This document shows positions 19,101 to 64,000 of a stretch of DNA of 64,000 nt, in pieces. Position 1 is the first letter of the stretch; the number at the start of each line of letters is the position of its first letter. A program made the position numbers and the translations under genes. Origin of the DNA: Psammoneis japonica (taxonomy: Eukaryota); contig QPGO01000158.1 in the NCBI GenBank assembly GCA_008632985.1, forward strand, positions 62,001 to 126,000. The letters are read 5' to 3'. The notes under the pieces are model-generated. The model was not told the origin of the DNA and did not search any database. It saw nothing but the letters and a program-made list of their open reading frames with translations.

Positions 19101-19364
19101 AACAGGAGCAACAGCGGTGGCAGCAGCAGCGGCAACAACAGCAACATTTCCTCAAAGTTGCTGGGGAATGGAAGAGTGGGGGTCAATGTTGCAGGAGATC
19201 CATGGAGCACAAAAGCCAAAGCAAAGAGGTTCAGGAGCTGTTTCTTGCTCCACCACTTTGTCCTTGGCCTTGATGTCATTGTGATGGGAAATGTGTTGAA
19301 GTCCAAGGGAGACCAGAAAAAATGTGGGTGCTCTTCTTCTGGCTCTTTTTTGGGTGCAATGTGA

Positions 19365-19500: not shown

Positions 19501-20218
19501 TGGAAATCCAAAAACAAAAATGCCCCCTTGTGAGCTGGCTGGTGGCAGTCCTCTGCTCCTTCTTTGCAAAAATGTTTTTGCGCAGCCCAGCATGGAACTT
19601 GAGCCAAAATGCAAATCTTGCTTGACACATGATTGTGAGGTGTCCATTGGAGATTTTGAAGTTGGGCAACACATTCATGCAGCAGCAGCACTTGCATGAA
19701 GTCAAGCCAAGTTGCTGTGGTTGTGGCGTTCTTGCCCGGGGTGCAAAAAGGTGGTGCCGAGATTTGTGATTTGACCCATGTGTGTGATCTCACACCATCA
19801 GTGGCTTTGATTAATTGGCCCACCAATGTGCTGATTGCAAGTGCCAGATCTGTGTGCCACCCCTGATTGCAGTGCAGCAAGTGTCCTGGCTGTGCTCCGC
19901 CCCAACCAACTGCCCACCACCCACCTCACCATCTTGCAACATCAAGGTGTTGAGAAACTGCAATGATGCTGCAGCTCACAATTGTGAACATGTGTTCACT
20001 TCATTTTGCAATGGCTGCTCCCAAAGCCACATCCTGAGAATCGGTCAGGTTGAGTCGTGCGGAAATGCAAAACACAACTGCTTGATTCTTCAAAAGGATG
20101 GTGTCGCCGTTTGACACGAAAGACACTTTCCACCTAATTGCCAGTACAGCACTTACGAAGGGGGGTTGGCAGCAAAAATTAAATTGAGTCACAGAAGTCT
20201 TCTTCTGATTGCTTCTAC

Positions 20219-29575: not shown

Positions 29576-30899
29576 TTAAGATGTCAAAGCGCACGCACGA
29601 CGCCCAGACGACTAACGTGTGGTCGAATGAATCGGTTCTCCTAGTCCATAATGATGATGTTATCCGACACAAAAAAAAACAACCATGGCGGCAGCAACAG
29701 CCGCTGCTCGATGTTGTTGCAAAACCTTTTCCCACAACAAATATGAATGCATAACATTCTCTATTTTTTTCTCATAAGTGTATCCACTAAAAGAGAGGTA
29801 AGAGAAAATCCAAAAATGGATAAAAACTCCCTTCTGTTGACATTGCTGCTTTTGATGATCCATCTCACAACTTGCGCGTTTCAATTTCTTTTTGTACTGG
29901 ACAGATTGACGAGCACCGAACCTCTTTCTTGGTAAAGAATAATGACTAAAACTCCTTCTGATGTTGCAAAAAAAAAAACTCGCGGGCGCCGTTGTTCCAC
30001 TTTGCCGCCGCTACAACACGCCACACTCCACACTCAGGCTTGTGAAACATTGCATTTTATGTTAAATGTGCAATTCTTTAGAACCATGCAATGCACACAA
30101 AAATGATCTTGTATAAGAAAAATAACTACAAACATTTTCATGGCAATAAAAATGCATGTAAAATGCAGTGCACAAATGTGCATTTCCCAAGTGTGTGTCC
30201 CGCGCTTTGCAATGAGCGGCGAAATGCCACGCACGAAAAGATCTTCTCTTCCACCTCTTCAATGTTCACCTTCATGGTTTGGGGGGTCGGGATCATCACT
30301 GAGTGGCTCACGACCAATGTTCTTCAAAGAATCATCATGCTTGCCGTTGCAATGCAACGATGAGTGAGCTCCGTTTGGATGGGTGGCTCCCCCAATCGCA
30401 TTTGCGGGGCTGGCAACTGCAGCCAAAAATTTTGTGTGGTGATGCATGACAAAGCTCATCTCGCGATCGCTCTTAAGTGCATTTATTGCACATCAACACA
30501 CGTGTTGTTGCCAACAGAAAATGACTGAAAACATTTTTTCAGGACTTAAAATGTGTGTCAAATGCTCACATTTACATTTGCCACGTTGACAAACACAATG
30601 TTTTGCAAGCCTGTCCATGCTGGCATCTGCAAGACCGGCATTGCTTGACGCAGTCGGCGTTTGAAGGCAGTGTGATGGTCAGCGTGGAAGTCTTTGGAGT
30701 GACCTTTCAAGGGTTGATGGTGTTGAGGAGCATGGTGGCGCCGCTGGCGCTGTTGATGCACGATTGGTGATCTGCAAGAGCAGGTGGCACTGTGGCAGCT
30801 GTGCAGTGTGGGAGTCGGCGGCGTTGGAGCAGTTGCTCGTGATTTGTTGCATTGCATTTGCACTTTTGTCCTAGAGAGCTCATCTCTGTGGCATTGTTT

Positions 30900-33800
30900 C
30901 TGACTTCAGTCATCAACAGCATGTTCTGCAGGGCACGCAAGTGCCGCTGCTGCTGCAACTGTTGCGACTGCTGGTGCAGGAATCGGCGGCCTTGGAGCAG
31001 CAAGTCGGCATGGTGGTGGGCGGCGTGGCAATGGCAGGCGGAGTGGCAGGCAGTGGTGTTGGAGTGCTGCCAGGCAGGTGGTGCAGGAGTCGGCGGCATT
31101 GCAACAGCTGGGCAGTGTGGGGGTTGGTTTGGCTGGAGCAGCTGGCTTGTGCAGGGAGTGGGTGGCATTGGAGCAGCTGTGCGGCATGGCAGTCGGCGGA
31201 GTTGGAGCAGCCAGGAGGTGCAGGAGTTGGCATGTGGGATGGTGCATTGCTGCATGGGAGTCAGCAGCATTGGAGCAGCTGGGTGCACTGGAGTGGGAAA
31301 CTGTGGGTTTATTTTGTTGTCGCCGACTTCAACCCATCATCACCAAGTTGGAAACTCAGGGTCGACACCGATGTTGTTCTTTGATCGGATCCTCTTCCAT
31401 TTTCGCTTTACAAAGTTGGATTCTACCGCTTTTAGATCATCTCCGATGTTGCACCCGCATGGCACCTCCCAGAAGGCCACCCGGTCCTCCGTTGGCACCG
31501 CACAGCATGCTGCTGTGTTGGCCGCCACCTTTCTGTCGTGTCTCGGACCTTTGCGATTCAAGCCGCAACGGAAACACCGCTGTGCTGTTCGACTGGGTGC
31601 CTTTCTTTTTCGATCATCTTGACTTGGTGGAGGCTCTGGCATTCAGATGTGTTGCCTGCTCTTTGCTGATTCCATCACAGCTGTGTTCCGGGCCGGTCTG
31701 CTGATCTGCGCTGGCGGCAAATTCACCAGTTGGCATTCTCCAGCTGCTCCAAATGGCTCGGATCTTTCAGGTGGGCTTGGAAGGGGTGGTCAAAAGGTTT
31801 GCAGTCGTGCGGTTGCGTGCATGTCTTTTCGTAGCCTGTTGGACTCACTGCTGACGACAACTGTTCTCTCTGCGCCAGAGTCGGTGCGCATCGTGCTCGT
31901 TTGACAAACAGTTTTCTCCCTGAGTTTCTGATGCTCGACCTTTTTGTGCCGGCAGTGGGCAGAAAGAATTGATGCTGTCTTCCTGAACATTTGGCGACGC
32001 TCACCAAGTGGTTTCTGCCATTTAGTGTCTACGAGATCGTCCCAACAACCGTTCATTCTGGCAAAATCGTACAACCCACGCTGATTTCGGTTGTTGCGGC
32101 TGTATTTTGCGAACAGTGGAAGCATTTCCTGAAACACTTCAGCTTTGTGTCCTGTGACTTGTGTCACAGGAATTCCATCCCGACCATCACGCTCGGCGAG
32201 GAACTCCATTGCGTCAGACATGGCGGTCTCCACTGCATTTGCCAGCGACTCAGCTGAATTCTTTGCACGCAGCAGTGCCATGCATCGATCCTCAATTGGA
32301 GTGCAAGTGCCTCCTCCGGCGAATCCAAAGTCATTTGGGTTTGCAAGATCCCCTTGGCACTGGTGCATTCCGTGCTCTTAGTTGGCAGTTTGCATGTTGT
32401 GGACAGTTTCGTGATTGTAGAACTTGTCGCACTCGGAAGAAGCAAGTCCCCTTTCTGTGGCCCGATCGTGGTTCCATCTGTGCACGAATGTCGCCAGAAG
32501 GCACACTGCCAGCAAGGGTGATGAATGACATGCAGCCAATGCTTCTTTAAGATGCTTGTGGAAACCCTCAAGTTGTGACGTCCCACGAACACAATGCAAA
32601 GTCGTCTTTCCACTCATCGGTTCGGTTCGGACGCAGTGGCAGTCGAAGCCGGGTTTGTCACTGACCCACCCTTTCTTTGTGTGTCTGACAAAGTTGAAGT
32701 GCACTTTCCAAGTTTCCTTTGAAAACAGGAGTTCACCTGATTTGGCACACTTGACATCAGCGATGAATCGAACGGCATTCTTCATGCGGGACAGAAGAGC
32801 ACTGGGCTCAGGTGTGATTCTCTCAATGTCTGCCAATGTCTTGGATGAAGGTCGACTCATCCTCCTTTTAGCCTCCTTTTTTGCTTCCTTGGGATTGTTG
32901 TGCCACCGACCATGCACACGGTTTGCCAGCTTTTCTGCCAGCTTCTCGATTTCAACGTCAAGCTTCTCTTGGTTGATCAATGGCATCAAGTCACAAAGCA
33001 GACCCGAACCTTCTTCGTAAAAGCCATGTTTCTTTTTCCAGGTTTTTTTAATGTCCTTCAGGAAATGAAAGGGATCACCTTTGACTCCGTTTCGTTTGTA
33101 GACCTCAGCTGCTGCTTCATCCCCAGTGAGCATCTCGATGTCGCCGTCCTCGCAATCATGTTGCAGCACTGCAAACTGAAGCTGATCGTCGTCATGGTCA
33201 TTTCGAATGCCATGCGATTCTGGGAACTCACTGAGACTGGCACCTCCTGGCAAATGCTCTCTTTCTTCTTCACTAAGATGGAGGCCTTCCAGTGAGTCTT
33301 CGTGCTGCTCATCACTGGGATTGATGTCTGCTCCAACGCTCACGCCTTGATCATTGTCTGTGCCATTGATTGTGACATTGTCCATGCCGTCTTCATCGTC
33401 AGTGCCGTCGATTGCGCTGCTGTAACCTGCGTGACAGCAGCCACCTTCATCTTGGTCGGCTGTTGCATCAGGACTGCTTCCGGCTTCGTCGAATGTGTCA
33501 TTGTCTGTGCCGTCTTCATCATCAGCGATGTCGATTGCATTGCTGTCACCGACGTGATCGCACGTGCCACCTTCATCTTGGTCGGCTGTTGCACCAGGAC
33601 CGCTTCCGGCTTCGTCGAATGTGTTGTTGTCTGTGCCGTCTTCATCGTCAGCGATGTCCATTGCGTTGCTGTCACTGACGCCATTGCATGCGCCACCTTC
33701 ATCTTGGTCAGCTGTTGCATTTGGACCGCTTCCATTTTTGTTGAATGTGTCATTGTCTGTGCCGTCGATTGCGTCGTCGTCTGCATCGTCTTCGGAAAAC

Positions 33801-36691
33801 TTGTGACGAGCTGCAGCACTCGTCACGTCTGCCTCGGTTGACAAAACCATTCGGGATTGCTTCCATGGTGCAATGCGATTGCCCCCGACCATGGAATCTC
33901 TGAGTGTTGCAAATGCCTTGTCTGCTTTGTTGTAGAAAGGATGGGGCACTTTCGCGCTCGGATTGACCACAGCCTTGACTGCGACCTTTGTGTCCTCGCA
34001 CGTTCTCAGCTTCCCATCAACAAGCTCCTCGGCTTTCATGTTTACATCTTGCATGTTTCCACATGCAACAATGGTGTTTGACGTGAGAGAAAAGAGACGA
34101 ACAGGAAGTCCAGGTTCCAAGTCGTCTTCACTCGGCTTTCGATGCATGGCTGCGAGCTTTTGCAACTCATGCCAAAGTGCCAGTGACAGCCAAGCATCCA
34201 GTGCGGCATAAATCACTGGCTCGAGACGCAATTGCTGGGTGCTCCATTTTGACCTGGCAAGGCTTTTGTCAACACGACATCCCAAGAATTTTTTGACCAT
34301 TGTTTCCATCTTTCTACGTTCTCCTTGCTGGAACAATCCGTGCCGGTCAGCGACGTCTCGGCAGTCAAAAGTCTTGATCAAGTCAATGCCAAACAGTTGT
34401 TCAGGACAATGACTTCACAGTCTTGTCACATCGCCTTTCACGTTCACGCCAACCAGGTGCACCTTGGAATGTGCAAGAAGTTGACGCAGAATCCCGTGTG
34501 TCTCACACCACCCACTGACGTTCGGAGCACCATGTCGGCCGTCGCTGTTTCTTGTCATGTTTGGAAATGCTGCCCACAATTTGATCACGCCAACTGACCG
34601 AGGGCACGGGTGGTCAGTTGCAATCTGCACCACAATGGGAACTTGGTTTTGCAAGTCATCATTTGTCAAGCTGTCCCACTCCACGTCGAAACCCACGCAC
34701 ACTTTGTCCTCAGCAACTTCGTCGACAGCGGTCAAGATTGGGAGGCAGAAGTCCTTCAGCTCCTTGCACATGTCCATCACCAGTGGATCAACCCCGTCGG
34801 GCAAGGAAGCCAAAGGAACTGTTGCGGCTTGATTTGCGTTGCTTTTGTCCAATCTGCCAAGGGGTGGCATTGCCCTGACAATCATTGGGCACTCATGGCA
34901 GCAATTGTCAGTGTAGAACAATTCAACTTCCTCGCAGGCGTGCACCTTGTGCCGATGTTGGACCACCTTCAAAATGTTTTCAACCTCTTCACAGTCTCCG
35001 CTCCGAACAAAGCGAATGTCCACCACCTGGTTGCATTCATTCATTGCAGTGTAGACAGAATCACATGCTCGCACGCTGCCGCCGGTGGCGCCAGTGACAA
35101 ATGCAAACTCAATGACCTTGCACGACTTGTCACCGAAAAGAACCTTTCCTGACACCATTTCAAGACATCTTTCAAAGTGTGGCAGCTTGGTGATGACACG
35201 ATTCACAAAGACACTTTGCAGATGCTGCCTCGACGGAGGACTGCGCACTCGCACCGTGTCGAATTTTGCAGTCATCGCATTTTCGAACTCGGGCTTCGGC
35301 ACGCTCTGAACAGTGCCTCGCAATTTTGGGTTAAAGTGCACAGCTTGAAACTGCTCCTTCAATTCAAAATGCTTGTTCTTTTGTTTTGCAGCAAGTTCAT
35401 TGTGAATTGCATTGAAGCTTCTTTTCGTCGAGACCGCCTCGACAATGTGGTTTGACAACTGCACTGTCACAGCCCCACGTTTCGTCATTGCTGCATTGAA
35501 AATGCCTCTCACGTTGGTTGTGAGATGAGCTAGCACCTCATCACAATGGCCAGCAAAATGGTGAGGATGGTTTTCAATGTCCCCACAATCTTCATCACCC
35601 ACTCGGAATTCGTCTGGAGCCGCATCTCGCAGTTTCCTAGGTGATTTAATGCTGCAACAGTGTTGACCCAAAAACATGCTTCCGACTGACCCATCTTCAT
35701 CAATGAATGTACGAACGAAGTTGTTGTAAAAAAGATCTCTGCAAGTGCAGGGTTGTTTGGTTTCCGTGTCGCATCGGAAGCCGTGCCATTTGCATGGCAT
35801 CTGACCAGTCGGCAGCAGGTGTGGGGCCGTTCTGTTGGGAGAAAAGAATGTCATTTGACAGAAGCACTTAACCAGCATGTCCACAAATGTTGGGGCTCTC
35901 TGAAGCTTAAAAGGTGCTGTCCATTCACATTCTTCAGATTTCCAAGGGAAATCCTTCGCCCCAGTTGAATGCCGAATGTGTTGATTTGATTGTTTGCATT
36001 TGTTTTTCATGTCCTTTCTCAGCTTGTGCATGACCTCTCCAACAATTTTCCAAAACATGCGTGGCACTTGCTCCATGTTGACACCCGGGAGGGGGTCTTC
36101 ATCAGTTGGCTCTTTTGCAGCCTGTTGCGGTGCGTCTGCAGGTGCATCTGCAGGGACGACCTCAGGGTTGTTGTCGTCACAGTCATTTTCTAGAGGAGCT
36201 CCAGCAGCAGCCCCTTGCACAACAACAGCTAAATTTCCATCGTCTGTCAATGCCTGACGCCTCCGTGGTAAAAAGAAATTTTGTGGGGCCCTTGCTTCCG
36301 CTCGGCTTGCTGCCAGCTGTCTGTTTTGCTTGAGTTCTGCAGCAAGTCGCCGGTCCCGATGCTGCCGCTCTTTTTCCTCTTTTTGCTTGTCCCTTTCAAT
36401 CTGTGCATTCGTCCTCCTGTTGTGTGTGCTTCCTCCAGCACGCCCCCGCCCCTTCTTCTTTTGCAGTTCCGACTCCCGTCTCACACGCGGATTTGCTGCG
36501 TACGGATTTGCCACCGGCGCGTGTTGCGATGCGGGTGCTTGTGTTGTTGTCAGCTGTTGCGCTTGATGCTGTTCTTCCTGACCTGCTCTTCCTTGCTGCT
36601 GCAACAAATCTGATGGCAATGCAGCTTGATCTGTGCCTTGCTGCGCCATTGGAGGCCGTGGCTCAGAAGGATCAGCTGCTTCTTCTGACAT
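30900..36691 (-). pseudogene. Degraded DDE-type transposase with an inserted DEDDy 3'-5' exonuclease domain
   Basis: Consecutive ORFs 34415-36697, 32378-34381, 31790-32368, 31340-31642. Transposase-like motifs LFGDKS, TAMNECNQV, FYTDNCC, GDPFH, RGTSQLEGFH. Exonuclease motifs GFDVEW, GVNVKGD, YAALDA. Confidence 0.75.
33350..33780 (-). repeat. 126-bp (42-aa) acidic coding tandem repeat, about 3.3 units
   Basis: ccaccttcatcttggtc at 33441, 33567 and 33693; unit DEDGTDNxTFDEAGSxPxATADQDEGG..SNAxDIAD. Confidence 0.92.
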
Positions 36692-37328
36692 CGTCAACGC
36701 TGCAAGTCAATGTTGACATTGTTTTTCCTCTCGTTTTGGCGTGTTGATTGAAGTGTGAATGAAACAAAGAGGATTCCCTCTTTCCTGTCGTCACACAATT
36801 TGCACCATGTTGGACCGTTCATTTCTGCTTGTCGTCACAGAAATGGAGTTGTGTCGTCACAGGATTCTGCACAAGTTCCAGTGCATTTCCCACACGATTT
36901 ATGAAGAGCTGCCTGCGCAGCTGGACGATTGCCGAAATTTCGCGCAAAACATGATGTCATGATTCACCCGCCCATGGTTCAGTCTGGACGGTTGAGCCAT
37001 TGACCCACGGCCGCGGCATCCCCAATCACCCACACACCATTTTGCATGATGTTCTCCCACCAGAATCTGCTAAGAAGACTGCTTGGGTGGATTGAGCATG
37101 CTTTGTCGGCCGCCCTTCTTTTGCTCTTCTCACTCTTCTCAATGGCTCAAATGAGAGACAAGGTGGTCAAGAGACACTCTCAAACAGAGTTGCTTTGGCA
37201 GCTTTCCATGCTGACAATCCAGCTGCTGAGCTGATTTGCTCTGAAAATCTGAGGCACTTTCTGAGCTGTGCAGTTGGTTCTTGCACGCTCTCCTCTCTGT
37301 GTGCATGATCCCAAAAAGTGCGCACACA

Positions 37329-37359
37329 AGAGAGAGAGAGAGAGAGAGAGAAGAGAGAG
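37329..37359. repeat. (GA)n microsatellite
   Basis: agagagagagagagagagagagaagagagag. Confidence 0.9.
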
Positions 37360-38572
37360 CTTTGCGAGAAAAGGAAGACAGGCAGGTCAAGCAGCTCATG
37401 CACCCGCAGATGTGAAGGCACTTTTTGAGCCATCCAACAAAAGTTTGTGAAGAAAGCTGGGTCAGACAAAAGGAAAGAAAGAGGGGGATCAACAGTGAGT
37501 GGCCGACATCAATGCAGCCAAGGCTCTGCGATTGAAAAGAAGAAAAGAGTCGTCGATTGACACAACGCTTCAAATGCATGAAGTCATTTGCATGCCCCAT
37601 GCATCTGTCAAAAGTGTGCAAAAAAGCTCAGTGAGAAAAGAAAGGAAAAAAAGTGGCCTTGGCATTTGCAGATGACAGGGCGCTTTTTTTGAGCACTCAA
37701 GCTGGTCTCACTCTCCACCATGCTGAGTGCGCATCTGTCACAAGTGTGTGAAGAAAGCTGGGTGAGCAACAGAAGAGGCAGATCAAGTGGTTTGTGCCAA
37801 GGTGGTTGGGGCTGCAATTGAAAAGAAAAAGAAAAAAAGAGAAAAATGTTGATTTGCTCAAACACGTCACACTCTGAATGCAAACAGTTTTGGTGAATGT
37901 TCTCCCAAGCAAGTGTTTCAAATTCAAGAAACATGGCTTTTCTGGTGATGGTGCTCTGATGTGTGAGGATTGCTGCAACAAAAATGACAGCCTTGAGTGA
38001 GCAGCTTGCCCCAAATGCTGTGCCTCCCTCTGTGAAAATGATTCTCACTGTGCAATCCCAGCCACATGCGCAAAGCCCATGTGAGGGATTCATTGGTCAT
38101 CTTCCTTGTGCCAAAAAAGACAATTGTGGTGGAGAGACATGGGGATGATCCAACTGTGGTGAAGATGATTTCATTGAAGAGCAATGCGCAGCAATTTCTA
38201 AGAATGTGAAGTTGAATGCCAACAGCCACTGTGCAATGAATGTGTCTGTTGTCTTTATCTTCTCCATCGTCTCTATTGCTGGCAACAATTTACGCATGTG
38301 TGGAGGCTGTTAACATGAATGCAAGGATTGGGACACGCATGCTGGCCACTGGTGATTCAGACATCAGTGGTGCGGTGGCTTGCCGTCAAAATGCTCGTGA
38401 TGAAGTTGTGTAATGTGTGTTAATGTATCTTTTTCTAATTTCGATCAACACTGTACTGTTTCACAATCTTCCTCGCACATCATTCCTTCCTTCGCAGGTC
38501 GAAAAACAACCACCGCGAGTAATATATTTATGATATATCGACTGCATTAAAGCATTTGGAGATTCCATACAT

Positions 38573-50936: not shown

Positions 50937-51173
50937 GGCAAATTTTTAGTTTTTTTGTTCAACCTTCAGTAAACCTCCTCTAAAATCGAAGTGGAACGCA
51001 CAATCTTCTGTCGACAACAGCAAGTAGAGGAACGAGAACTTGCGGTTGTGAGCGAGCAGCAGTCTCGAAGTCAAGCGAAGAGGGGAAGCGCCGCCGAGTT
51101 GACCATGGCCGCTGGCTGCTGGCTGCTGGCCGCTGCTCTCACATGCGTGCGGCTGCGCAGCCGGCAGGACATG

Positions 51174-51958
51174 TGAAGAATTTACCATGTGATCTTATCG
51201 GAATTAGTGTTTAGAACTGTATATTTGGCGATTCGGAACGGGAAGACTCCATCCGAGATCTAGTCACAATCTTAGAAATAGTAGCACGATGTTACAACGA
51301 TTTTCTATAACTTTACTCTCTAGCAAGCGACTACAGGGTAATTTATTCACTTTATCAGAGCCATCGCCGTATGTAACGACAGTGGTAATGATTGCTACGC
51401 TTGCGAACGACTCGCAATACGACCATTCGTTCCAACTTGTCAGAGATGACATGAAAACATCGACGAACGTGAGACGACGTTCGTGCTTGACGAGTATGTA
51501 ACTCCCAGGGCTAGTTCGGCCGTAATACTTATGGATAACAAAAGTATCGACTGTCCTGATGTGTCTTATGAGCGTAAATACGCGGACACAGAGCGCAAAA
51601 TTGGATCTGGGACGCCATTTCCATACCGAAGTTATCTCGGAGGCAACCGCGTGGCGATTTGAAATCGCCGAGTGAGCATATATACATATCCAAGTTGAAT
51701 ATGTAGACGCGATATAATTAATAAATTATATATTTAACCTCACTAATTAATAAATTATATATTTAACCTCACTATTGGTCAATGTAAAACAGGGAGCGAG
51801 CACGTCGCCGATGATCGGCACATGCATTATTCGATCACGTAGATTGTAACAGTAGCCGTTATATCTGAATCTCGACACAGATATTAATCCACGTGGATTA
51901 AATATAAACCGCTATCTGTAGACACGTTGATCGTAGTTATAACGATTACTTTTATCCA
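51174..51958 (+). repeat. 5' LTR of the copia element (3' end approximate), TA-rich and unmutated
   Basis: Begins TGAAGAATTT; first 177 bp match 58400-58576; contains a 29-bp AT-rich tandem duplication at 51715-51772. Confidence 0.8.
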
Positions 51959-52063
51959 ACGGTGGAAAAGCGATACGAAGTTCGCGCACCTCACTCACTT
52001 TTCGTGCACAACCACACAAAAGTTTGCGAGACACGTAAAACTCACCGTTTGTAACCATCAACC

Positions 52064-55000
52064 ATGGCAGCAGTCGCAGCAGCGATGCGTGCTGCCTGCG
52101 CCCGACTGGGGTTTACCGCGCAGGCAGCCGCGGCTTTAACCGATGAGCAGGGAATCGACTCAGTCGATGAACTGCGTCATCTCGATGACCACGAGGTCGA
52201 GACCTCACGCAAGGTCATTCGTCGCCCAGGAGGGGCTGCGGCAGGAAATCCGCCGGCAGGTGGGAACGTCCAACCCAACCTGGGGACGTCAGTCCCATTG
52301 CGAGCCGAGACGAACCTCAAGCTCACCGCACACACGGCTCGTCACTGCGAGCGCATGTCGCGGACGTTGCGAGCTGTTGACATCAACCTTGCACGAGTGC
52401 GAGGCTGCCGCCACTTCCGCACTGTGGAGGAGACCTGCAAACCGCCCGAAACGCCACCAACGATCATCGAAAAGGACTGGCCGAAGACGATCGAGTCAAT
52501 TCAGGAGCATCTGCGGGCATGCCGAGGCGAAACGAAGATGCCGCTGTCGCACGTCATCCGTGAGAACCAGGAAGCAACCGCCGAGGCCGACGATCGGCCA
52601 CCAACTACAACGACCCGATCGAGGAGATGATCACGAGGGCTCCCCATCTCACTGCTGGGAACAACCCTCAACCCACCGAGACGTTCACGGCCGACAACAT
52701 CAAAGTGTGGGAGATTGTCGCCGGCATCACTCGGGAACATGCGAGTTGGGCTTATGTCAAGCCAGCCCAGAGGCGCCAGGATGGCAGGACGGCCCACCTG
52801 AACCTCTACAACCATTTCTTGGGCCCCAACAATGTAGACAACATGGCGAACGCTGCTGAAAAGAAGCTCGCCAGTCTGTCCTGCCATGGGGAAAAGCGCA
52901 ACTGGAATTTCGAGCGCTGCGTGCGTGTTCATGTCAAACAACACGCGATTCTGGACGGCTCAAACGAGTGTGGTTACGCCGGGATCGACGCACGATCCAA
53001 GGTCCGCCATCTCCTTGCAAGTGTCAAGGACTCGTCGCTTGACTCAGTCAAGATGCAAATTGTGTCTAGCGCAACGTTGCACAATGACTTTGATGCTTGT
53101 GTTGTCCTGTTCAAGGACTTTATCAAGCAGTCCAAGCCGGACAACGACCGAAACGTCTTCGTGTTGCGGCTCTCAAGGCTGGGAAGCGCAAACGAGAAAC
53201 CGTCATTCATGCCGATGACATGGAGGACAAGTGCCACCCTCCCAAGGAGCACAGCAAGCTTTCTCCTCAGGCCAGGAAGAAGCTCAAGTCGCTGCGCGAC
53301 ACACGTGGTGACACGAAGAGCGGCAAGGCCACGGCGGCCGGCAATGCCAAGCAGATCAGAGCTTTGACCAAGATGGTCGTGGCGATCTCAGCTCAGATGG
53401 ACAATTCATCCGATGAAGGCAGCAGCGAATCTGAGACTGAAGAGCCAATGAAGCCTCCGGCTGCCAAGCAGGAACGGAACCGAAACAACAAGGCGTTGAT
53501 TCGTGAGGCTGCTCGCAAGCATGTCCCCAAGGCTGGATGCTGCAGGAAGTGACAGCCAGTGGTGGCCGTCATGCGGCTCAGTCCGTTGCAGACCTCATGC
53601 CGACCCAGACGAAGGTTAAAGGACCGTCGCGAGAAGAGTCTCGCACGGACATTGACAGTCATGCAGACATGAGCGTGCCAGGCAAGCACGCTTTAATTTT
53701 ACTTGACCATGACAGGCCAGCAGACACAGAAGGGTGCGACCCGACTTTGGGTGCCAGCAAGCGCCTGCGTACAGTCAGTGGAGCTGTCACCTGTGCAGAT
53801 CCTCAGACGGGCCACCCACACGTCTTGGTTGTCCACCAAGCAGTCCACAAACCACACCTTGAGCACAACTTGCTGTGTCCAATGCAGTTGTGGCTGAATG
53901 ACGTGGAACTTTCATTAAAACCGAAGTTTCTGCTGACAAAGCCCAACGACAAGGAACATGCGATTGTCGCCAAGGATGCCACGGCACTTCATTGGCCATG
54001 CCTTTAGACCTGGAGGGAGTCTCGAGCTGCTTCCCCTCCAGTGTCCCGACCTCAGCTCAACATGAGGATGCGGCCCAAGATGGGAGCGTGCATGAACTCA
54101 CGCATGAGTCCCCGGAATGGGATCCCGCCTCCTCCAATTTCCACGCCAGGGAAGATGCCATGACCGATGCTCTTGGCAGAGTGCATGAGACCGGGGACGA
54201 CACGCGTCCTCACGCACACATCATGAGCACAAAGCTCTCACGCACTGCAGCTCAAGAGACCTCAGATGCCCTGGGGAATCAGCCGTTGCATGATGTTTCC
54301 GATGCATGCGATGATCATTTGCTGCTGGCATCCATGAAACTGTCTTCGCTCAAGACAACGAAGCGCGGCTTCAAGGTTGACGCTGAACGTTTGGCCGAGA
54401 ACTGGTCCGTCAGCCTCAAGGATGCTCAGAACACTCTCAAGGTTACGACACAGCGTGGAGCCAGGACAGTTCTGCATCCTGTGCCATCACGACGTTTCCG
54501 CGCCAATGACCGACAACTGCGACACAGGCGCATCTCAAAGGAGATGCACTCCGACACCTTGTTCTCCTCTGTCAAGTCTAGATGAGGGAATTTGTGCGCG
54601 CAAGTGTTCGCAATGTCCAATGGGTGGGCACGCGCTTGTGCAACACACAGCCACTGACAAGAGCCAATGTGTCACGGCGACGTGTTGCAGCCTTTAAATG
54701 TCACAAAGGGCATGACAAAATAACCTTTTGTCTGCATGCATGCTGCATTGTGAATTCACAGCGGAGTGGCACATCGCAACCATTGGGCAGGAGGCCAGGG
54801 GTTCGAAACCCTGAGTGGGAGTTGTCTGCAGCAACGTTGATCACTGTCGAACGCGCAAAACTCTGTGCAGTTCTGCACGTTCCTTCGCACGTACCCACAC
54901 TGTTCCGCCAAAACCGTGCAGTGTCAGTGCACGTTAGTAAAGAGCCGCATGGACGCGTGATGCATGGGGAGGAGTGCAACACACAGCTGCCAATGAGAGC

Positions 55001-58000
55001 CAATGTGTCACGGCGACGTGTTGCAGCCTTTAAATGTCACAAAGGGCGTGACAAAATAACCTTTTGTCTGCATGCATGCTGCACTTGTCCATTGAAGTCA
55101 AAACGTCTGGCGCACGAGGCGTTGTCGTTGCTCTTCACGCAAGAAGGCGTGCCCCATGCTGTGCTGGTAGACGGGGCGAGAGAAGAGACAATGGGGCAGT
55201 TTAGCAAGAAAGCCAGGGAGGCCGATTGCCACATTGGACAAACTGAGCCATGTGCCCCTTGGTCTGACACCGCAGAGGGCGCAATTCGTGAACTCAAAGC
55301 GAGGCGTTGGGCACAAGATGGTTAAGTCACAGGCCCCAAAATGCTTGTGGGATGATTGCCTGGAACTGGAAGGCCTTGTTGGGTCTAACACGCTCGAAGC
55401 ATCTGTGAGCTTGACGGTGAAGTCCTGGAAACTGCAGTGTCTGGTCAGACGGCTGACATCTCGCACATGTGTGAACTCGGCTGGTGCAACTGGATCATGT
55501 TTCGAGACACGGCAGTCTCATTTCCCGAGGACAAGGAAGTCCTGGGACGATGTCCAGGCCCGAGCAGGGATGCAGGCCCTGCTGTGACGGTCAAGACACT
55601 CAAGGAGAACGGACAGGTCGTCCATCGCTCATCTCATGGGGCACTGACGCCCGAGGAACAGGAGCACAAGACGCACCTTGCATTGCGTGAGAAGTTCGAC
55701 AGGTCAGTGGAGGTCAAGCCAGGCCCGGGTGTGACCGTCGGGGACTTTGATGACCCTGACGCAATTGCTCCCACCTTCGAACCGTGCGAGGATGACGAGG
55801 AACAGGATGTTCCGGCCAGTGCCTCCGATGAGGATGACACCCCAGACGAAGCCTACGATCAACATGTCAACGCAGAAGCACTGCCACCTCACGGGGACAT
55901 GGAGCAGACTGGGACAGTGAAGCGACGCAAGCTCAATCCGGACGGCACACCTGCCGGACGGGCTGGCCCAAACCCGACACTTGACACTCGTGTGCATGAG
56001 GTCGAGTTTCCTGATGGATAGGAAGCGGAATTCGCGGCGAATGTCATCGCTGAGAATGTGTTCGCACAGTGCGACAATGAAGGCAACCAGCACTTGTTGC
56101 CAGATGCAATCATTGATCACAAGACTGACGGGCATGCAGTCAAGAAGGAGGATGCCTTCATCCAAGACAGTGGAGGACGTCGATCCATGCGCAAGACTGC
56201 CAAAGGCTGGCATCTTTGTGTGCAATGGAAAGACGGATCCACATCTTGGGAACGACCATCCGACTTGAAGGAATCCAACCCAGCAGAGACAGCAGAGCAT
56301 GCTGGGGCTAGATCCACAGAGGACGAACCAGCCTTTGCCTGGTGGGCCCCCTTTACCTTCAAGAAACATCAGCAGATTATGGCCGCTGTGAACAAGCAAC
56401 ATCACAAGTGCACTCACAAGTGCGGGGTGCGCATTCCCAAGACCCATGAAGAGGCAGTCGAGATCGACAAGGCTGACGGCAACCGCTTGTGGCAGGACGC
56501 CACAGACAAGGAGATCGATGTCGTTTCGAAGGCCTTTGAGATTATCGACGACGACGAGGAACTCGTGGGTTGCCAGCATGTTCGCTGCCACTTGGTCTTC
56601 GATGTCAAACTACAAGACTTCAAGCGGAAGGCTCGTTGTGTTGCAGGGGGGCATGCCACTGAACCTCCAGCGACTCTGACGTGTGCAAGCATCATCTCCC
56701 ATGAAAGTGCAAGGATTGCCTTCGCTCTAGCGGCTCTAAATGACTCAGAGGTTAAGGCTGCGGACATTGAGAATGCCTGCATCACCGCACCTGACAGCGA
56801 GAAGATCACTGCAACTCCAGGACCTGAGTTTGGACCCAATGCTGGGAAGCGTGCCACAGTTGAGCGTGCATTGCATGGATTGAAGAGTGCAGGTGCATCC
56901 TTCAGGAACCACTTGGCATCTTGCATGCGCCATCTTGGATGGGAACCATGCCTGGCTGATCCGGATGTGTGTGTGAAGGCACAGGTCCGACCGGATGATG
57001 GGTTCCGTCACTGTGCCCATGCACTGTTGCATGTAGACGACGTGCTTGTGGCACACCACGACGCTACGTTGGCACTCAAGGAATTGGACCGGCACTTCAA
57101 GATGAAACCCGGATCCATCGGTGACCCTGAGATGCGCCTCGGGGCGAAAATCCGTGAAGTGCAAATGCCGAATGGTGTCTGCGCATGGAGCATGAGCTCT
57201 AGCAAGTGCATCCAACAGGCCATTGAGAATGTTGAGGGGCATCTAGATGAGACTGCTCCCGGATGGATGTTGCCACGCAAGGCAACTTCTCCGTTTCTGT
57301 GCAACTGTCGACCGGAACTCGACATCACGCCAAAGCTTGATGCAGAGTGGGCCCGATTTACCAGTTGCAGGTGGGATCCTGCGCTGGATGGTGGAACTCG
57401 GACGAGTCGACCTCACAGTGGAGGTGTCCGAGCTCGCCTCATTCCTCGCCATGCCTGGAGAAGGTCATCTCGACGCAGTCCTGCATGTGTGTGGACACCT
57501 CAAGAATGGACATGATGCCACGCCAGCGTTTGATCCGACGTGCCCGGATGTTGACATGTCTGACTTTAAGGAATGTGATTGGCAGGCATTTACAGGGACA
57601 TTGAGGAGGCAATTCCGCCAAATGCACCAGAAGCTCTGGGCAAGGACATTGATCTACACCCATTTGTGGAATCAGATCATGCGAATGACAAAGTGACGAG
57701 ACGCTCTCGCACTGGTTGTTTTGTCCATTGAATGTGGCACCAGTCACCTGGTTCTCCAAGCGCCAGAGTGCCATCGAGACTTCAGTCTTTGGTGCTGAGT
57801 TTGTGGCTGTGAAGCAGGGCATGGAAGCTTTGCGAGGCCTGAGGTGTAAACTCAGGATGATGGGAGTCCCGCTCAGCGGACCATCACACATTTGTGGGGA
57901 CAACATGTCAGTTGTCCACAACACCCAAAGCCCAGAGTCGACTTTGAAGAAGAAGTCTAACTCTGTGTGCCACCATGCCGTGGGGAGTCGGTGGCTGTGG

Positions 58001-58135
58001 GTGAGTCCCTTGCAGGACACATTAGATCGGAATGCAATCCGGCTGATCTTGCAACCAAGATCATGCACGGTGGTGTCAAACAAGATGGCCTCGTTGGCAT
58101 GATGCTACACGACACATTTGATGACAAAGGATGAA
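52064..58135 (+). pseudogene. copia gag-pol pseudogene
   Basis: ORFs 52064-52630, 52627-53367, 53537-54007, 53992-54585, 55437-56021, 56058-57515, 57716-58102; frameshifts and systematic Tyr->Cys/His. Confidence 0.93.
54639..55083 (+). mobile_element. TRIM (445 bp) nested in the copia integrase
   Basis: 109-bp TG..CA LTRs at 54639-54747 and 54975-55083, PPT ggggaggag, 4-bp TSD CTTG; removing it restores GWARACPLKSK. Confidence 0.92.
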
Positions 58136-58399
58136 AGAAGAATGAACAGTCGCTTCTTCGACTGTTTCTTTTTCTGTTTCTCCTTGCATCTGCGAGCATG
58201 GGAGCTCACACCAGCGGGCATGTTGGCTCGCATTCCTTCCATGCGCCTCTTGGAAGGGCACAGTTGGACCGGCACCCTTTCCCAATTCGGGTTTCAGCAG
58301 GTTGCTGGGGTTTCCTTGTCACTTGGTTGTGGCTAAATGCTGTCGGAGTGTAAATTGGATCAATCCGATTCAGTGTCTGCTTCAACGACTTGAGGGGAC

Positions 58400-58576
58400 T
58401 GAAGAATTTGCCATGTGATCTTATCAGAATTAGTGTTTGGAACTGCACATTTGGCGATTCGGAACGGGAAGACTCCATCCGAGATCTAGTCACAATCTTA
58501 GAAATGGCAGCACGATGTTGCAACGATTTTCTGTGACTTTGCTCTCTGGCAAGCGACTGCAGGGTAATTTGTTCAC
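58400..58576 (+). repeat. Truncated, hypermutated 3' LTR
   Basis: Ungapped 177-bp match to 51174-51350 with 14 substitutions. Confidence 0.95.
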
Positions 58577-59714
58577 ATGCCGGTAGGGCAACATGTCAGC
58601 AGCGCAGAGTGAGCTCACAAGAACATGGCTGTGATGCCTCACTGACAAACCAAGAAGGTTGCTTTGGAGGGAACATGTTGCTCAAAATGGAAATCTGACC
58701 AACCGTGATTTGGTCTCACAACAAAATGTGGCAGTCTTCTCAAACTCCAAAAGCCCGGCTGTGCAGGGACTCTTGTGTTCTTCCTCCTCCTTCAGCTCCC
58801 AGAGAACGAGCCCCTTCTCTCAAGTGTGTGCAACTGGGACCAGCTTGTCAGCCACACCAGTGGTGGCAGGTTTGACAAGCTTCTTGGTGGCCAAGCTTTG
58901 CTGTCATCTAACAGAAATTTCCTCCTCTTTCCTTTGCTCTCTGGTGGCAACGGACACAGCCCACTGGCCGCTTGAGGCACACAATTTGCAAATGTGGAAA
59001 GAATCTGCCTCAATGAGGGAACAGGCATTTTTGCACCAGTCACAGCTGGTGCTTCTATTTCCTTGATTTCTGTGGCTGGGGGGGGATGACCCCTGCATGG
59101 CTGCAGGTGAGCCTGTCCCAACAATGCCTTTGTCCCAACAAAGCCTGGGCATCTGCAAGAAGACTGGAGTGTGATGACAATGATGACAGTGGCTGTCCTT
59201 GCTGCCCTTTTTAGGACAAGAAAGAGGAGCACTGCCACCAAGTGCAACAACATGAGGACTTTGGTTGTCTGACCACTTGTGGCTGCAGCAGAGTTTTGTC
59301 CTTGCATCCATGGCAAGAGCCAACAGCGCCTTTTCAGATCCTCAGCTGATGGGACACCCAGCAGGACAAATTTTAGAAAATGGCAGCAGCTTCAACACCA
59401 CAGCCAGCAATGATGGTGCATCAAGGTTCCTGTGTGTGTGATTTGAGCACATTTTTCTTTTCAAAACACAGGCTTGTCTCAAGATGGAAAAATTGAGCTG
59501 CCCCAGCACCAACAAAACAAAAAGGTGTTTTTTCTGGGACACGTGTGAAGCTCAGATGTGCAAAGAGAGTCCTTTGTCAAGCTGGACAGGACTCAAAACA
59601 AAAAAATCTCATTTTGTTTGATTTGAACATTTGGAAAAGTTTGGCAGAAATTTGAACTTGAGCAAACAAAGCTGAGATGTTTTGCACAGTGTTGACACAC
59701 TGTGACGTGCTGCT

Positions 59715-60360
59715 TGGGATGTGAAGTGCATGTTCAAAAGCTGAAGCTGCAAACCATTTTGCAAAAGAGACTTTTCTGTTGGCTCACACTTTGCCACCAG
59801 GTCTCTCTGTTGGCTGCCCTGACTTTGCTTGCCATCACAAGAGCTGCAGCCAAACAAACCACACAAACTGTGCTCCACCCTTTGAGACTGTTCCTTGGGA
59901 CATGGAAAGTGAGCTCAGAAGCTGAGAGTGCAAACACTTTGGCAGAAGTGACTTTTTCTGCTGGCTCACACTTTGCCACCAGGTTTCTCTGTTGGCTGCC
60001 CTGATTTTGCTCTCCTGCCACAACTGCAGTCAAACAAACCACCCAAACTGTGCTCAACCTTTTGGGGCTGTTTTCTAAGACATGGACAGTGAGCTCAGAA
60101 GCTGAGAGTGCAAACACTTTGGCAGAAGTGACTTTTTCTGCTGGCTCACGCTTTGCTGCCACCAGGTTTCTGTGCACACCCAGAGGCTGCTCTGCTGCCA
60201 AAACTGCAGCCAAGAAACACACCCAAACTGCAATCAAGCCTTTGAGGCTGCTCCTTGGGATGTGAAGTGTGTGCTCAGAAGCTGAAGCTGCAAGCCATTT
60301 TGCAGAAGAGACTTTTTCTGTTGGCTCACACTTTGCCACCAGGTCTCTCTGTTGGCTGCT
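59715..60360. repeat. 180-bp tandem repeat, about 3.5 units
   Basis: gctga(ag/ga).tgcaa at 59740, 59921, 60101 and 60281. Confidence 0.9.
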
Positions 60361-61699
60361 GCCGCTTCATGGGCAAGTCCCAGAAAATTGGTCATTGACA
60401 CAATGCAGCTCTTTTGTCCATCACCCTTTGTGCCAAGTGGAAGCACACCCGGTGCAGAAAGCTGGAGCTGATGCACTCAAATGACAAATGCAAAAGCATG
60501 AAACAAAAAGAGTGCCAACACACCACAGGGAAGTTTTGGTGCTTGCTGACAAACAAGGGCAAAAGGCAAAACACAAAACTGGCTGTCATGGAGGTCCTGC
60601 CATTGTTGTCAGCATGAGTGCAGCACCACTTTACATGCACAAGATGGTTTGCGGACACAGACATGTACAATCTGTGGCAGATTGTGCACTGCCATGCCAC
60701 ATCACATTTTTCTTGATGCAACAGTTCAGATGAGCTCTGCCGCTGGTTGATGCACTGGAATGGCCCAATTTGCTTGAACTGCAAAAGTCATTGGCTGCCC
60801 CAAAATTTGCATGAGAGGCCAATGGACAAACACAATGATGTTGTTGTGGCAGCGGCATTGTCAGCACTTTTCCACTGCCATGCAACAGCACAATGTTGTT
60901 TTTGATGGAACAACACAGATGAGCACCAATGGCTGGTGCATCAGAATGGCCCATTTTGCTCAAACTGCAGGAGCTTGCTGTTTTGTTCAAACTTGTGTGA
61001 GACCAATGCACCATCACAAGCACTTTGCTGCAGCCTTGTTGCAGTGTGCTTTTCTTTACAACACAGATGAGTGCCAGTGGCTGGCACAAGAGAGCAACCA
61101 AATTTGTTCAAACCAGGAGTCACCAGCTTGTCCAAATTTGAAGGAGAGGCCAGTGGTGCCAACACAATGACAACATGGTGGTGGCATGTCAGCACTTTCC
61201 TGCAGCTGCACAACAGCATGTCTTTCATGATGTGTCAAGAGGGCAGACAAGCATTGATGGCTGATGTGAAGGAACAGTCTGTTTTGCTCAAACTGCAGGA
61301 GTTCATCACATTCTTGTTCAAGCTTGCATGAGGCAGCCATCAGCATGTTTTTATGATGATGTGGCTGAGTTGTCAGCACTTTCTTGCAGCCTTGCAAAAG
61401 TGTGTTTTGACAGCATAAATGAGTGCAGGTGAATCTGTCATGTTCTGGCACAAACAGAAATTTGGGGATGCACTGGGCATGACAATGTTGCTGTCATTGG
61501 CAGACTGCCAAGGTGCACTTGAAATGTTGGTTGGTGAGCGCGAGTTTGGCTGTTGCACCACCCCCACATGAGTGCTTCAGAACTGCCATGAGTTGATCTT
61601 CAGATGGTCCTGATGCATGATTTGGTCATTTTGGAAGACTGGTGGAGACTGTGCTTTGAATCCATGGGGCACCCTGCCTGGACAACAAGCAACTTCCAT

Positions 61700-62735
61700 G
61701 TTGGCAATTTTTGCTTTTTAAGTTGCCACAAAAGAAGTCTCAGCATGCAGCCCAAACACTCTGATGGCACATGCACACTTGTGGGACATTGTCACTTGCA
61801 GAGACAATGCTGCAGTGATCATGAAATGGCGGGAACTTCAAATGAAGGCCTCTGCTGTTGTGCCACAGTGGAGTGCAGCATCTTCACTCCTTGTGTCTCT
61901 TTGTGATGTCTGCGTGGTGCCACACAGAATTGTGCATGGTGCATGCATGCATGGAGCCCCTCACATTGGGTTGCACTTGCACACCAAAAATGAGCTCTCC
62001 AAGCTGTCCATGGCTGTGACATTGTTTCCTGGAAAAGGTCAGGTGAGTCATTGTTGCATGAGTCCATTGGCAGGACCAACATCTTGCATGTTCCTCATGG
62101 GCAGACAAGCATGCACAGCGTTTGGCTGCTGCTGTCTGCAAGTCAAATGTGGCAGCACCCTCTGGCATTGAGGAGATCTGATGATGACACCCACCACACA
62201 AAGCTTTCAAGCTCATGCAGCATGTCTGGACATGAGGAATTGGGTGGGGCAATCTTTTGTCCCCATTGTTGAGCTCACGGAAATTGCCAACAAACCATGC
62301 CACAAAATCTTGCTTTGGCAAGGAAAATGATGGAGCTGCGCACTGCAGACACAGTTGGTTGTGTGCTCAGCAATGCCAACTTCATGAATGTGCTCCACTT
62401 TCTTTCTCAGCATTGCTTCACATCCCCTTGGGGCTTTGCAAAGATGTCTGCAACATGGCACAGCATGATCCTCTTTGAGCTTGGTGTGCTGACAGGAACC
62501 CCCTTTCCACTCGCCTGACATGCCATCAAGCAAGGACTCACACTTGCTCAACAAACTGAGCAGCTTCATGTTCTGGTCACTGCCAAGACCTGTTGCTCCC
62601 TGCATTGTGTCCTCAAGGCATGCTGGCACATGCTCAGCATCTGAGATCTTCACAATTCTCAGTTCTGTTGCTTTCTGAAAACAGTGCCTCTGGATCTTGA
62701 AAACAAATGAAGGTTTCTGCAGTGGCTTCTGCACA
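61700..62735 (-). pseudogene. Ty3/gypsy reverse transcriptase remnant
   Basis: LLSKCESLLDGMSGEWKG, KLKEDHAVPC, PKQD..FVGNFRELN..KRLPHPIP, LPMDSCNNDSPDLFQE resemble gypsy LLxKYxxLFDGTLG, DFRELN, PYPIP, LPMG..SPDxFQ. Confidence 0.75.
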
Positions 62736-64000
62736 CTTCAATGGCATCTTGTCATTGACCTTTGGCCACTCCAGCATGTCTCATCCAACAACCATGTGTC
62801 AGGTTTGCATGATGATCAACTGTGTGTGTGGTTGACTTTGCGCACAAGCTCTGCTGTTGCAGACAACTCTGGCAACTGAAATTGGTGATGCAAGCACTGT
62901 GTGCCATCTTGAAGCTGCCTGCCAATGTGGTTTTGGCTGTTGTGTGGCTCAAAAGCCATTTGCTTGCAGCACTTGGCATCTGGCAGCACATGCTCCTGAT
63001 GCTGCCATCTGGCACTGCTTCAATCATTTCAGGCTTGCCTTCACCATGCTTGGCATCCATGGCTGCAAACAACATTGCTGCCAGTCAAATGTCTGTGCTT
63101 GACATGTGTGCAGGGTTGGCCTGTGCAACATGAGTGTGATGGCACAACAAGTGATGCACTGAACCTGTCTGACTTGCACTGGCCTGCTTGTTCTCAGGTG
63201 CTGTTGTCCTCCAAATCCTTGTTGGAGTCACCCAGGGAGAGGGCACAAAAGTAATTTGGCTCCTCTTTGCAAGCCTTGCACACCACCCTGCAGTTCTCAA
63301 GCACATCTTCAACTCTTGCCTTGGCAGGAGCTTTGTCAAGCTCCTCATGAGTGGTGTGCAGTTTCTGTGTGGCTGGTTTCTGATTGCTGTTCATGTGGGA
63401 CATCTTGAGACATTCCACCCCATGCCTCAAAATGAGATGTTCTTCCACATTGTGCACCTGGCACTGTCACCACCATGCAACACTCAGCATTTGATGCCTT
63501 TCTCTCCTGACTGGCGACCCCAGCACTTTTGAGGAATGTCCATTCTTCCATGGCCCTGGTGCTTCATGGGGACATTGTGGCACGACCTTCCTGCTTGCCT
63601 TTGGCAGAAACAAATTTTGCAATGGCATGAGTCCACGGGTCAAAATCCTGTGAGATTGTCTGCCTTTGCCATGTGTTTGGAGCGCTTCATTCAAATGAGT
63701 CAACCAACTCATCTTCTGGCAATGATGCAGGTGCAAAACCATTTTCAATCACAGACAGAAACAGCAAGATGTGGCCATTCAGCTCACTGACCTTTGTGGC
63801 ACAGAGTCACCTGTCTTCACACCATTTGGCTTGAGTGCAAAACATCACAGAGACAACATGCTTTTGCAGCAGCACTGCCTTGTGCAGGAAGATGCTTTCA
63901 GTCACCTTTGAGATGCACACCTTGAACAAAACCACATTGGCCCCCCCCTGATGCCCCTTTGACACACCATCATCAAATGCAGCAAAGACACTGCCTTGTT

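Follow-up and report, generated by a model that had tools for sequence, protein, structure and literature searches.

Reciprocal CA/TG doublets between the sister long terminal repeats of a miniature retrotransposon as probable footprints of TpA-specific regional hypermutation

A 64,000-nucleotide stretch of contig QPGO01000158.1 of Psammoneis japonica (assembly GCA_008632985.1, positions 62,001 to 126,000 of the forward strand; hereafter the window) carries at 54639..55083 a short retrotransposon whose two long terminal repeats (LTRs) differ at three neighbouring dinucleotides, one repeat reading CA where the other reads TG and the reverse. The question raised by this locus is how such reciprocal doublets could arise between two sister repeats. 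The element is a TRIM, that is, a terminal-repeat retrotransposon in miniature, and it lies in the integrase region of a Ty1/copia-type LTR retrotransposon. The best explanation as a whole, and in our judgment a fairly probable one, is that the doublets come from a regional hypermutation specific to the dinucleotide TpA.

The alignment of the 5′ LTR (LTR1, 54639..54747, plus strand, TG...CA termini) with the 3′ LTR (LTR2, 54975..55083, plus strand), each of 109 bp, showed 7 differences in 109 positions, all of them transitions, and the repeat search scored the pair at 94%. LTR1 and LTR2 read respectively CA and TG at LTR positions 14/15, TG and CA at positions 17/18, and CA and TG at positions 20/21. 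The cluster is CA-c-TG-a-CA in LTR1 (54652..54659) and TG-c-CA-a-TG in LTR2 (54988..54995). The seventh difference is an A in LTR1 against a G in LTR2 at LTR position 74 (54712; ggCAtg against ggCGtg), a CpG-to-CpA change in LTR1. A first-pass annotation of this DNA had described the reciprocal doublets, together with one CG/CA difference and identity elsewhere over 109 bp, and this description proved exact. It had also noted that neighbouring CpGs persist in both copies, and the three CpGs of cacggcgacgtg, close to the doublet cluster, are indeed intact in LTR1 and LTR2. The probability of finding at least 6 of the 7 differences inside 8 bp is 8.5e-6 under uniform placement over 109 bp, and that of finding three doublets inside 8 bp is 0.006 when sites are drawn at random among the 28 CA/TG sites of the LTR. 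As both placement probabilities are low, the clustering of the doublets is not due to chance.

The insertion itself was examined with contigs from three runs of one sample and from one sediment metagenome placed on the TRIM stretch. Four X1 contigs join 54630-54636 to 55080-55089, leaving out 449-452 bp; in three X1 contigs the joints 54634->55084 and 54630->55080 skip 449 bp, i.e., the 445 bp of the element plus 4 bp. These joints correspond to further host copia copies in which the insertion is lacking (empty sites). A target-site duplication CTTG flanks the TRIM on the left (54635..54638) and on the right (55084..55087), as seen both in the sequence and in the contig joints, and loose contig ends at 54638 and 55087 carry differing flanks. 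The summed contig depth reaches 36,000-222,000 on the TRIM, against 450-1,230 on the copia flanks. The TRIM is a real, very abundant insertion in the integrase region of the Ty1/copia element, represented by 1 copy in the 64-kb window.

The host element gives the polarity of the change. This copia (51174..58575, plus strand) has 176-bp LTRs at 51174-51349 and 58400-58575, a CATG target duplication at 51170-51173 and 58576-58579, and an RVT_2 domain. Its LTR pair showed 14 differences in 177 aligned positions, 13 of which are a TA in the 5′ LTR facing either a TG (10) or a CA (3) in the 3′ LTR. The remaining one is a CG in the 5′ LTR facing a CA in the 3′ LTR, paralleling the lone CG/CA difference of the TRIM pair, and sites of reverse polarity number zero. 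Counted by available substrate, conversion affected 13 of the 18 TA sites of the copia LTR pair, as compared with 1 of 8 CG sites.

Then, the copia reverse transcriptase (RT) was aligned with 25 homologues sharing 47-55% identity, the named ones being from diatoms, and columns with at least 70% Tyr were taken as conserved-Tyr columns. None of these 15 columns kept its Tyr in the window copy (7 His encoded by CAY, 5 Cys encoded by TGY, 1 Arg, 1 Phe and 1 Thr), whereas 211 of the 264 other conserved columns were kept. The RT open reading frame (ORF) comprises 485 residues without a single Tyr, and the LLYVDD motif of the homologues is aligned with LLHVDD. Also, 5 of 17 conserved Arg columns have turned to His, Gln or Cys. 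The polarity of the copia LTR differences and the loss of Tyr codons imply that TA was the ancestral state and TG or CA the derived ones. The closest named relatives of this RT are diatom copia RTs (at most 57% identity), and the nearest named relatives of an ABC1 kinase encoded in the window are also from diatoms, with up to 74% identity overall.

Both strands were affected, the TG:CA ratio being 10:3 in the copia 3′ LTR, 5:7 at the Tyr codons and 554:592 in the copia interior. A sense-strand bias is not supported, the ratios at the Tyr codons and in the copia interior being near-even. Rules based on the 3′ neighbour were also tried for the choice of strand: the order TAC>TAG>TAA>TAT fits 9 of 11 informative events in the copia LTRs and the order T>C>G>A, which the survival of TpA by context suggests, fits 8 of 11; neither is decisive.

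Low TA content is a property of the region. The TpA-depleted domain (52140..64000, unstranded), delimited from TA positions, counts per 200 bp and observed/expected ratios per 1 kb, starts about 790 bp past the copia 5′ LTR, takes in the TRIM as well as the copia 3′ LTR and the repeats that follow it, and runs to the end of the window; it is depleted in CpG as well from ~58.7 kb onward. The copia 5′ LTR with its leader of about 790 bp (51174-52140) has a normal to high TA content (observed/expected 1.05 for the 1-kb bin). As TA is low only from ~52140 on, the border of the hypermutated domain falls inside the copia; this would result from a spread of the domain from the 3′ side or from a replacement of the copia 5′ end by that of an unmutated copy. 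The low TA content runs past the 3′ end of the copia, and the process is therefore regional and not bounded by the element. A process converting TA to TG or CA exists here, acts on integrated DNA and on both strands, and is regional.

In the whole window, 24 of the 64 bins of 1 kb have a TA observed/expected ratio of 0.00-0.23, with TG and CA at 1.4-2.2. Genic bins show a CG ratio of about 1, a TA ratio of 0.4-0.8 and 2-3% Tyr. In the bins at 28-37 kb and 52-58 kb, the latter covering the copia with its TRIM, TA lies at 0.07-0.23 and CG at 0.6-0.9. At 13-20 kb, 37-38 kb and 59-64 kb the ratios are 0.00-0.08 for TA, 0.05-0.31 for CG, and near 2 for TG and CA; for example, 62001-63000 contains 5 CG and 0 TA. 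Age together with methylation could account for this joint loss of CpG and TpA, as could a deaminase with C as a further substrate. Elements struck by the depletion are the copia, the TRIM and, as a lead only, a pair of genes resembling DUF6729/3′-5′-exonuclease proteins; genic bins are spared. Relative to genic DNA, TpA survived best in the context TTAA (0.49) and worst in ATAT (0.01), and an additive per-strand model, fitted by hand, describes the ten NTAN classes.

The doublets had at first appeared peculiar to the two TRIM LTRs, a view that did not hold: CA/TG ranks first among the double differences of each of the window's repeat families. Among window paralogues it accounts for 38 of 69 adjacent double transitions, the other six classes having 4-7 each and CG/TA none. 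A 2-bp inversion (CA being the reverse complement of TG) was rejected since the flanks are generally not palindromic and single TA/CA and TA/TG differences exist.

The first-pass annotation had argued for mutation of chromosomal double-stranded DNA after integration, against RNA editing of the ADAR type. For the host copia this stands directly, its 5′ LTR being spared and its 3′ LTR converted; for the TRIM, that all six hits fell within this very copy is somewhat more likely than not. The argument against ADAR-type editing held. If TRIM RNA had undergone A-to-I editing, or if its cDNA had been deaminated during reverse transcription, the modifications would precede integration. Retroelement RNA and cDNA are classical substrates of deaminases, and ADARs are stated to prefer a 5′ U in a recent preprint (Mettrop et al., bioRxiv 10.64898/2026.01.13.699255). 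The RNA route, however, yields only A-to-G on the sense strand, the same in both LTRs, whereas both TG and CA are found here and the LTRs are unlike. Moreover, the copia 5′ LTR is wholly spared while its 3′ LTR was converted, mostly to TG, and the depleted domain extends past the end of the element into the flank. We consider editing before integration extremely improbable.

The same products would be expected if the ancestor of the cluster had been agcCGcCGaCGagag, with methylated CpGs deaminated independently to TG or CA in the two LTRs. Some observations speak for it: there is one CG/CA difference per LTR pair in both TRIM and copia, some regions of the window have fallen to a CG observed/expected ratio of 0.05-0.2, and the 5 of 17 changed Arg columns of the copia RT are also in its favour. 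Nevertheless, it would need all six CpGs to be lost, yet three CpGs only 13-22 bp away persist in both LTRs and 23 persist in the element (observed/expected 0.76, as compared with 7 TA and 0.28). Assuming a TA ancestor, 6 of 10 TA and 1 of 8 CG instances were converted in the TRIM LTRs; in the 3′ LTR of the copia the figures are similar (13 of 18 and 1 of 8). By hand arithmetic with these copia rates, a six-of-six conversion favours a TA over a CG ancestor about 4e4-fold, and still about 200-fold when the CG rate is set at the 5/17 given by the Arg codons. The family data described below, in which the net extra state is TA and not CG, point the same way, and decay of CpG seems to us very improbable as the origin of the doublets. 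The CA/TG pairs do indicate an ancestral self-complementary pyrimidine-purine step, and the earlier preference for a TA over a CG ancestor was borne out by the copia rates, by the loss of Tyr in the RT and by the excess of TA in the family.

Variation within the TRIM family is itself dominated by transitions, which make up 82 of the 88 variable places of the X1 contigs on the TRIM stretch, many of them as adjacent CA/TG pairs. In X3 record 18 (277 nt), 22 letters depart from the window TRIM, grouped as 8 CA/TG doublets, 4 single transitions and one CA-to-TT change; in X2 record 12 the 15 differing letters comprise 5 doublets, 3 singles and likewise one CA-to-TT. This excess of doublets over singles (8 against 4 plus the CA-to-TT in the former record, 5 against 3 plus one in the latter) led us to reject a passage through CpG or TA by ordinary transitions alone. 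On LTR2, G>A was found in 14 contigs and T>C in 11 at site 1, C>T in 31 and A>G in 21 at site 2, and G>A in 34 and T>C in 32 at site 3. The net extra state at the three doublet sites is TA, not CG, and the CG consensus that would have spoken for methyl-CpG decay was not found.

Both sister LTRs share alleles that are in the minority in the family, namely C at position 26 (T making up 68% of depth), TG at 32/33 and T at 83, and they are therefore true sisters. The possibility, raised earlier, that the LTRs derive from two different subfamilies is answered only in part by this sharing, since LTR1-like CA-TG-CA occurs in X3 record 18 and a TG-CA-CA haplotype in X2 record 12.

Several observations weigh against a conversion of TpA within this copy. 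The expectation of a family consensus with TA at the three sites did not hold in the literal sense: most of the contigs placed on LTR2 carry TG-CA-TG, TA being a minority state at about 1-4% of depth. Non-majority letters at the three LTR2 sites amount to 2-5%, 14-18% and 30-32% of depth, figures that give a rough size only, as they are sums of depth and short contigs internal to an LTR go to the best-fitting LTR. With TA-bearing copies at a few percent, a TA-TA-TA source copy must have been rare or have been converted since. At each of the three sites LTR2 has the state that prevails in the family and LTR1 the minority one, and the LTR1 haplotype recurs in the 3′ LTR of X3 record 18. The states of LTR1 in this copy would also fit descent of inherited family haplotypes within a subfamily. 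Also, two LTR TpAs, one in TTTAAA and one in AATAAC, escaped conversion in both copies, and no single TA/TG or TA/CA difference separates the LTRs. At one common rate (d = 0.76), a split of 3 doublets, 0 singles and 2 kept sites has a probability of about 0.004 (by hand); such a split being unlikely at one rate, rate differences from site to site are needed. TTAA is indeed the best-surviving context (0.49), unlike ATAA (0.14).

These data give some room to an old origin of CA-TG-CA and TG-CA-TG in progenitor elements, by TpA hypermutation or otherwise, each LTR having received one of the haplotypes through intermolecular plus-strand transfer between the cDNAs of co-packaged TRIM RNAs or through short ectopic gene conversion following integration. 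Both haplotypes exist elsewhere in the family, in X3 record 18 and in most of the contigs on LTR2 respectively. Donors are plentiful, as the depth contrast between TRIM and copia flanks indicates, and in the X5 metagenome run, which is from another sample and contains a single diverged TRIM copy, the 5′ LTR has A and not G as second letter of sites 1 and 3, since there is no A>G among its 11 changed places. However, the alleles rare in the family that both LTRs share at 26 (a mere 5 bp away from the cluster), 32/33 and 83 require a transferred tract shorter than about 25 bp. In the one known CA-TG-CA copy, X3 record 18, the haplotype sits with T and not C at position 26, a background as expected for a recurrent origin. 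The intact target duplication excludes recombination between two elements. In standard reverse transcription both U3 copies are made from one template, which also argues against separate haplotypes in the two LTRs. On the whole we regard inheritance of two haplotypes as unlikely, though it deserves to be kept in view.

A foreign haplotype could also have been written into one LTR during assembly or polishing by reads from other copies. The very high copy number, the presence of both haplotypes in one sample, and the fact that among the contigs listed none spans the whole TRIM stretch would be compatible with such a chimera. Polishing driven by the majority would nevertheless overwrite the minority alleles located 5-11 bp from the cluster, and these are kept in both LTRs. 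In addition, 313 of the 1,295 X1 contigs placed there match the TRIM stretch at 99% or more, and the evidence from the host copia is independent of the TRIM locus. An artefact of this kind appears to us quite improbable.

Finally, the cluster resembles a nearby motif: TGCCAATG of LTR2 matches 7 of the 8 letters of AGCCAATG, 10 bp downstream, and a local template switch overwriting 8 bp would explain the clustering by one event. But the six changed letters are all transitions at pyrimidine-purine steps with two letters unchanged in place, for which an arbitrary replacement has a chance of about (1/3)^6 by hand estimate. The doublet type occurs singly throughout the family and the window, and an intermediate haplotype, TG-CA-CA, exists in X2 record 12. 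A single templated event is, in our opinion, hardly credible.

We hypothesize that the TRIM lies within a chromosomal domain hypermutated specifically at TpA, in which TpAs of inserted or repeated DNA would have their A replaced by G on one strand or the other; a change on the top strand would give TG and a change on the bottom strand would give CA. Three closely spaced TpAs (agcTAcTAaTAagag) would then have been converted separately in each sister LTR, with opposite outcomes by chance, the seventh difference being presumably an ordinary CpG-to-CpA change. That the doublets are footprints of TpA conversion is very probable in view of the copia LTRs and RT. It is reasonable to suppose, with more reserve, that the three sites were still TA when the TRIM integrated and that all six changes occurred in this copy afterwards. 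The chemistry may be a deamination of adenine in DNA by an ADAT/TadA-like enzyme, by analogy with what has been proposed for the chlorarachniophyte Bigelowiella natans.

The comparison with B. natans is drawn from the preprint (Mettrop et al., bioRxiv 10.64898/2026.01.13.699255). In mutation-accumulation lines, 231 of 302 nuclear mutations fell in two integrated viral regions; 230 of these 231 were A-to-G or T-to-C, all on TpA according to the text, and the de novo rate was elevated about 1000-fold in living lines. The genome contains 124 clusters depleted in TpA and enriched in CpA and TpG, reverse-transcriptase and DDE domains are over-represented among its TpA-poor genes, and an ADAT2-like deaminase was proposed as a hypothetical agent. 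The likeness with our data is that only TpA-to-TpG or, according to strand, TpA-to-CpA changes occur, on integrated foreign DNA. The differences are several. De novo mutations were followed there in a member of the Rhizaria, whereas here only footprints are seen, in DNA whose nearest protein relatives are from diatoms; viral inserts are concerned there, and a copia, a TRIM and unannotated repeats here. The TA observed/expected ratio of the viral region is 0.45, and falls here much deeper, down to 0.00. As against 124 clusters genome-wide, 24 of the 64 bins of our single window pass the thresholds given in the preprint, grouped at 13-20 kb, 30-38 kb and 59-64 kb; enrichment was taken for this purpose as the mean of the TG and CA ratios, a choice of ours from which the preprint's own formula may differ. 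The word "CpG" was counted zero times in the preprint, and the joint loss of TpA and CpG is therefore not described in it, whereas the most depleted, and oldest-looking, regions of the window are also CpG-poor. Here, also, a domain border lies within an element. The process is best filed as the same kind of hypermutation in a second, distant lineage. In literature searches for TpA-specific hypermutation, this preprint (10.64898/2026.01.13.699255) was the only relevant report found, with nothing for diatoms or elsewhere; a term search of a 2009 paper on diatom retrotransposons gave no match.

Other known systems are more remote. Fungal repeat-induced point mutation (RIP) likewise represents a regional, dinucleotide-specific transition hypermutation acting on both strands of repeated or foreign chromosomal DNA and destroying its coding capacity, but it turns CpA into TpA and enriches TA, whereas TA is removed here. 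A fungal-type RIP was rejected on the loss of Tyr codons, the fall of TA to 0.00, and the copia 5′ LTR reading TA where the 3′ LTR reads TG or CA, together with the CG-to-CA change. Deamination of methyl-CpG also generates TG and CA from a self-complementary pyrimidine-purine dinucleotide, and CA/TG differences between copies; its substrate is CG where ours is TA, and CpGs beside the cluster and throughout the TRIM survive. ADAR and APOBEC share with the process proposed here a deamination directed against selfish elements, and ADAR a preference for U before the edited A, but they act on RNA or cDNA before integration and on one strand, whereas here the changes affect integrated DNA on both strands and beyond the element borders.

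Among the other features of the TRIM, the internal region (54748..54974, plus strand, 227 bp) is non-coding and without ORF, between LTRs with the termini TGCAAC...GCTGCA that are identical at 102 of 109 positions. It holds a stretch resembling a tRNA 3′ end at ~54767-54781, a T-arm-like motif GGGGTTCGAAACCC at 54800-54815, and a polypurine tract GGGGAGGAG (54966-54974) that directly adjoins LTR2. The complement of a ...CCA end, starting with TGG, is present about 20 nt past LTR1 only in the majority reading of the family (54770/1 = TT, ~97% of depth), and the tRNA-3′-end-like stretch is altered in the window copy. ARAGORN detected no tRNA in the core and Rfam gave no family. The element agrees with the TRIM class in its length of 445 bp, its 109-bp direct LTRs with TG..CA ends, its target duplication, its purine tract, its lack of ORF and its high copy number; it departs from it in a putative primer-binding site that lies apart from the LTR and carries changes in the window copy, and in a target duplication of 4 bp, as in the host copia. 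The target duplication of Ty1/copia elements is usually 5 bp. Those of copia and TRIM are both of 4 bp (CATG and CTTG), which fits a mobilisation of the TRIM by the host copia lineage. A search of the metagenome with a degenerate LTR pattern returned 3 loci, all due to chance, and BLAST of the TRIM against these gave only matches of 23-31 bp, in one of them.

Side observations were made in other parts of the window. A direct repeat at 27761-27960 / 28100-28306, in a TA-poor bin, has a spacing of 339 bp (336 in the TRIM) and 73-80% identity between its copies; it could be an old TRIM of another family, and no similarity to the studied TRIM was found. Two ORFs of 760 and 667 aa on the minus strand at 30707-38093 have only 0.5-0.9% Tyr, with His and Cys raised. 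For the 760-aa ORF, Atlas gave a resemblance to DUF6729/exonuclease proteins (score 0.92), to be taken as no more than a lead, and the 667-aa ORF has a 3′-5′ exonuclease domain (Pfam E = 2.4e-8). This region probably corresponds to a further selfish element, with hypermutation at TpA and none at CpG. Tandem arrays at 59708-60359 (180-bp period) and 33368-33817 (126-bp period) lie inside depleted regions, and their copies differ mainly by transitions, CA/TG doublets included. Pfam and NCBIfam scans of the ORFs in the depleted regions gave almost nothing.

A PhoD-like phosphatase gene (20219-22021) has decayed paralogous fragments at 12435-13960 and 18095-19102, compared with 20187-21773, in or beside the region free of TA and CG. 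Between the gene and its decayed paralogue, TA changed to TG or CA at 7 of 11 sites with 1 reverse change, a weak signal from 497 aligned bp lying mostly outside the depleted bins. A duplicated host gene may have been struck as well, which would point to a targeting of repeats over a targeting of foreign DNA.

If the footprint in these diatom-like LTR retrotransposons holds, the TpA process would extend beyond a single species and beyond inserts of viral origin. Conversion of TA to TG or CA at a high rate distorts the dating of insertions by LTR divergence, the building of subfamily consensus sequences and the detection of methylation from CpG content. Long open frames persist in dead repeats because no TAA or TAG stops remain. 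The process points to a natural activity editing adenine in DNA with a defined context, the survival of TpA in the window being highest in TTAA and lowest in ATAT. It is conceivable, although we would at present lean somewhat against it, that a diatom-like lineage has a RIP-like genome defence of opposite chemistry, consisting of a domain-wide deamination of TpA adenines in double-stranded DNA that crosses element borders, erases Tyr codons, TATA boxes and TAA/TAG stops, is followed later by CpG loss, and is ancient across the stramenopile-alveolate-Rhizaria (SAR) group. If this were true, old repeats would finish without any TA or CG, and the CA/TG doublets between sister LTRs would be a built-in clock of the TpA process. 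Also, its occurrence in both Rhizaria and stramenopiles would make this system ancient and SAR-wide.

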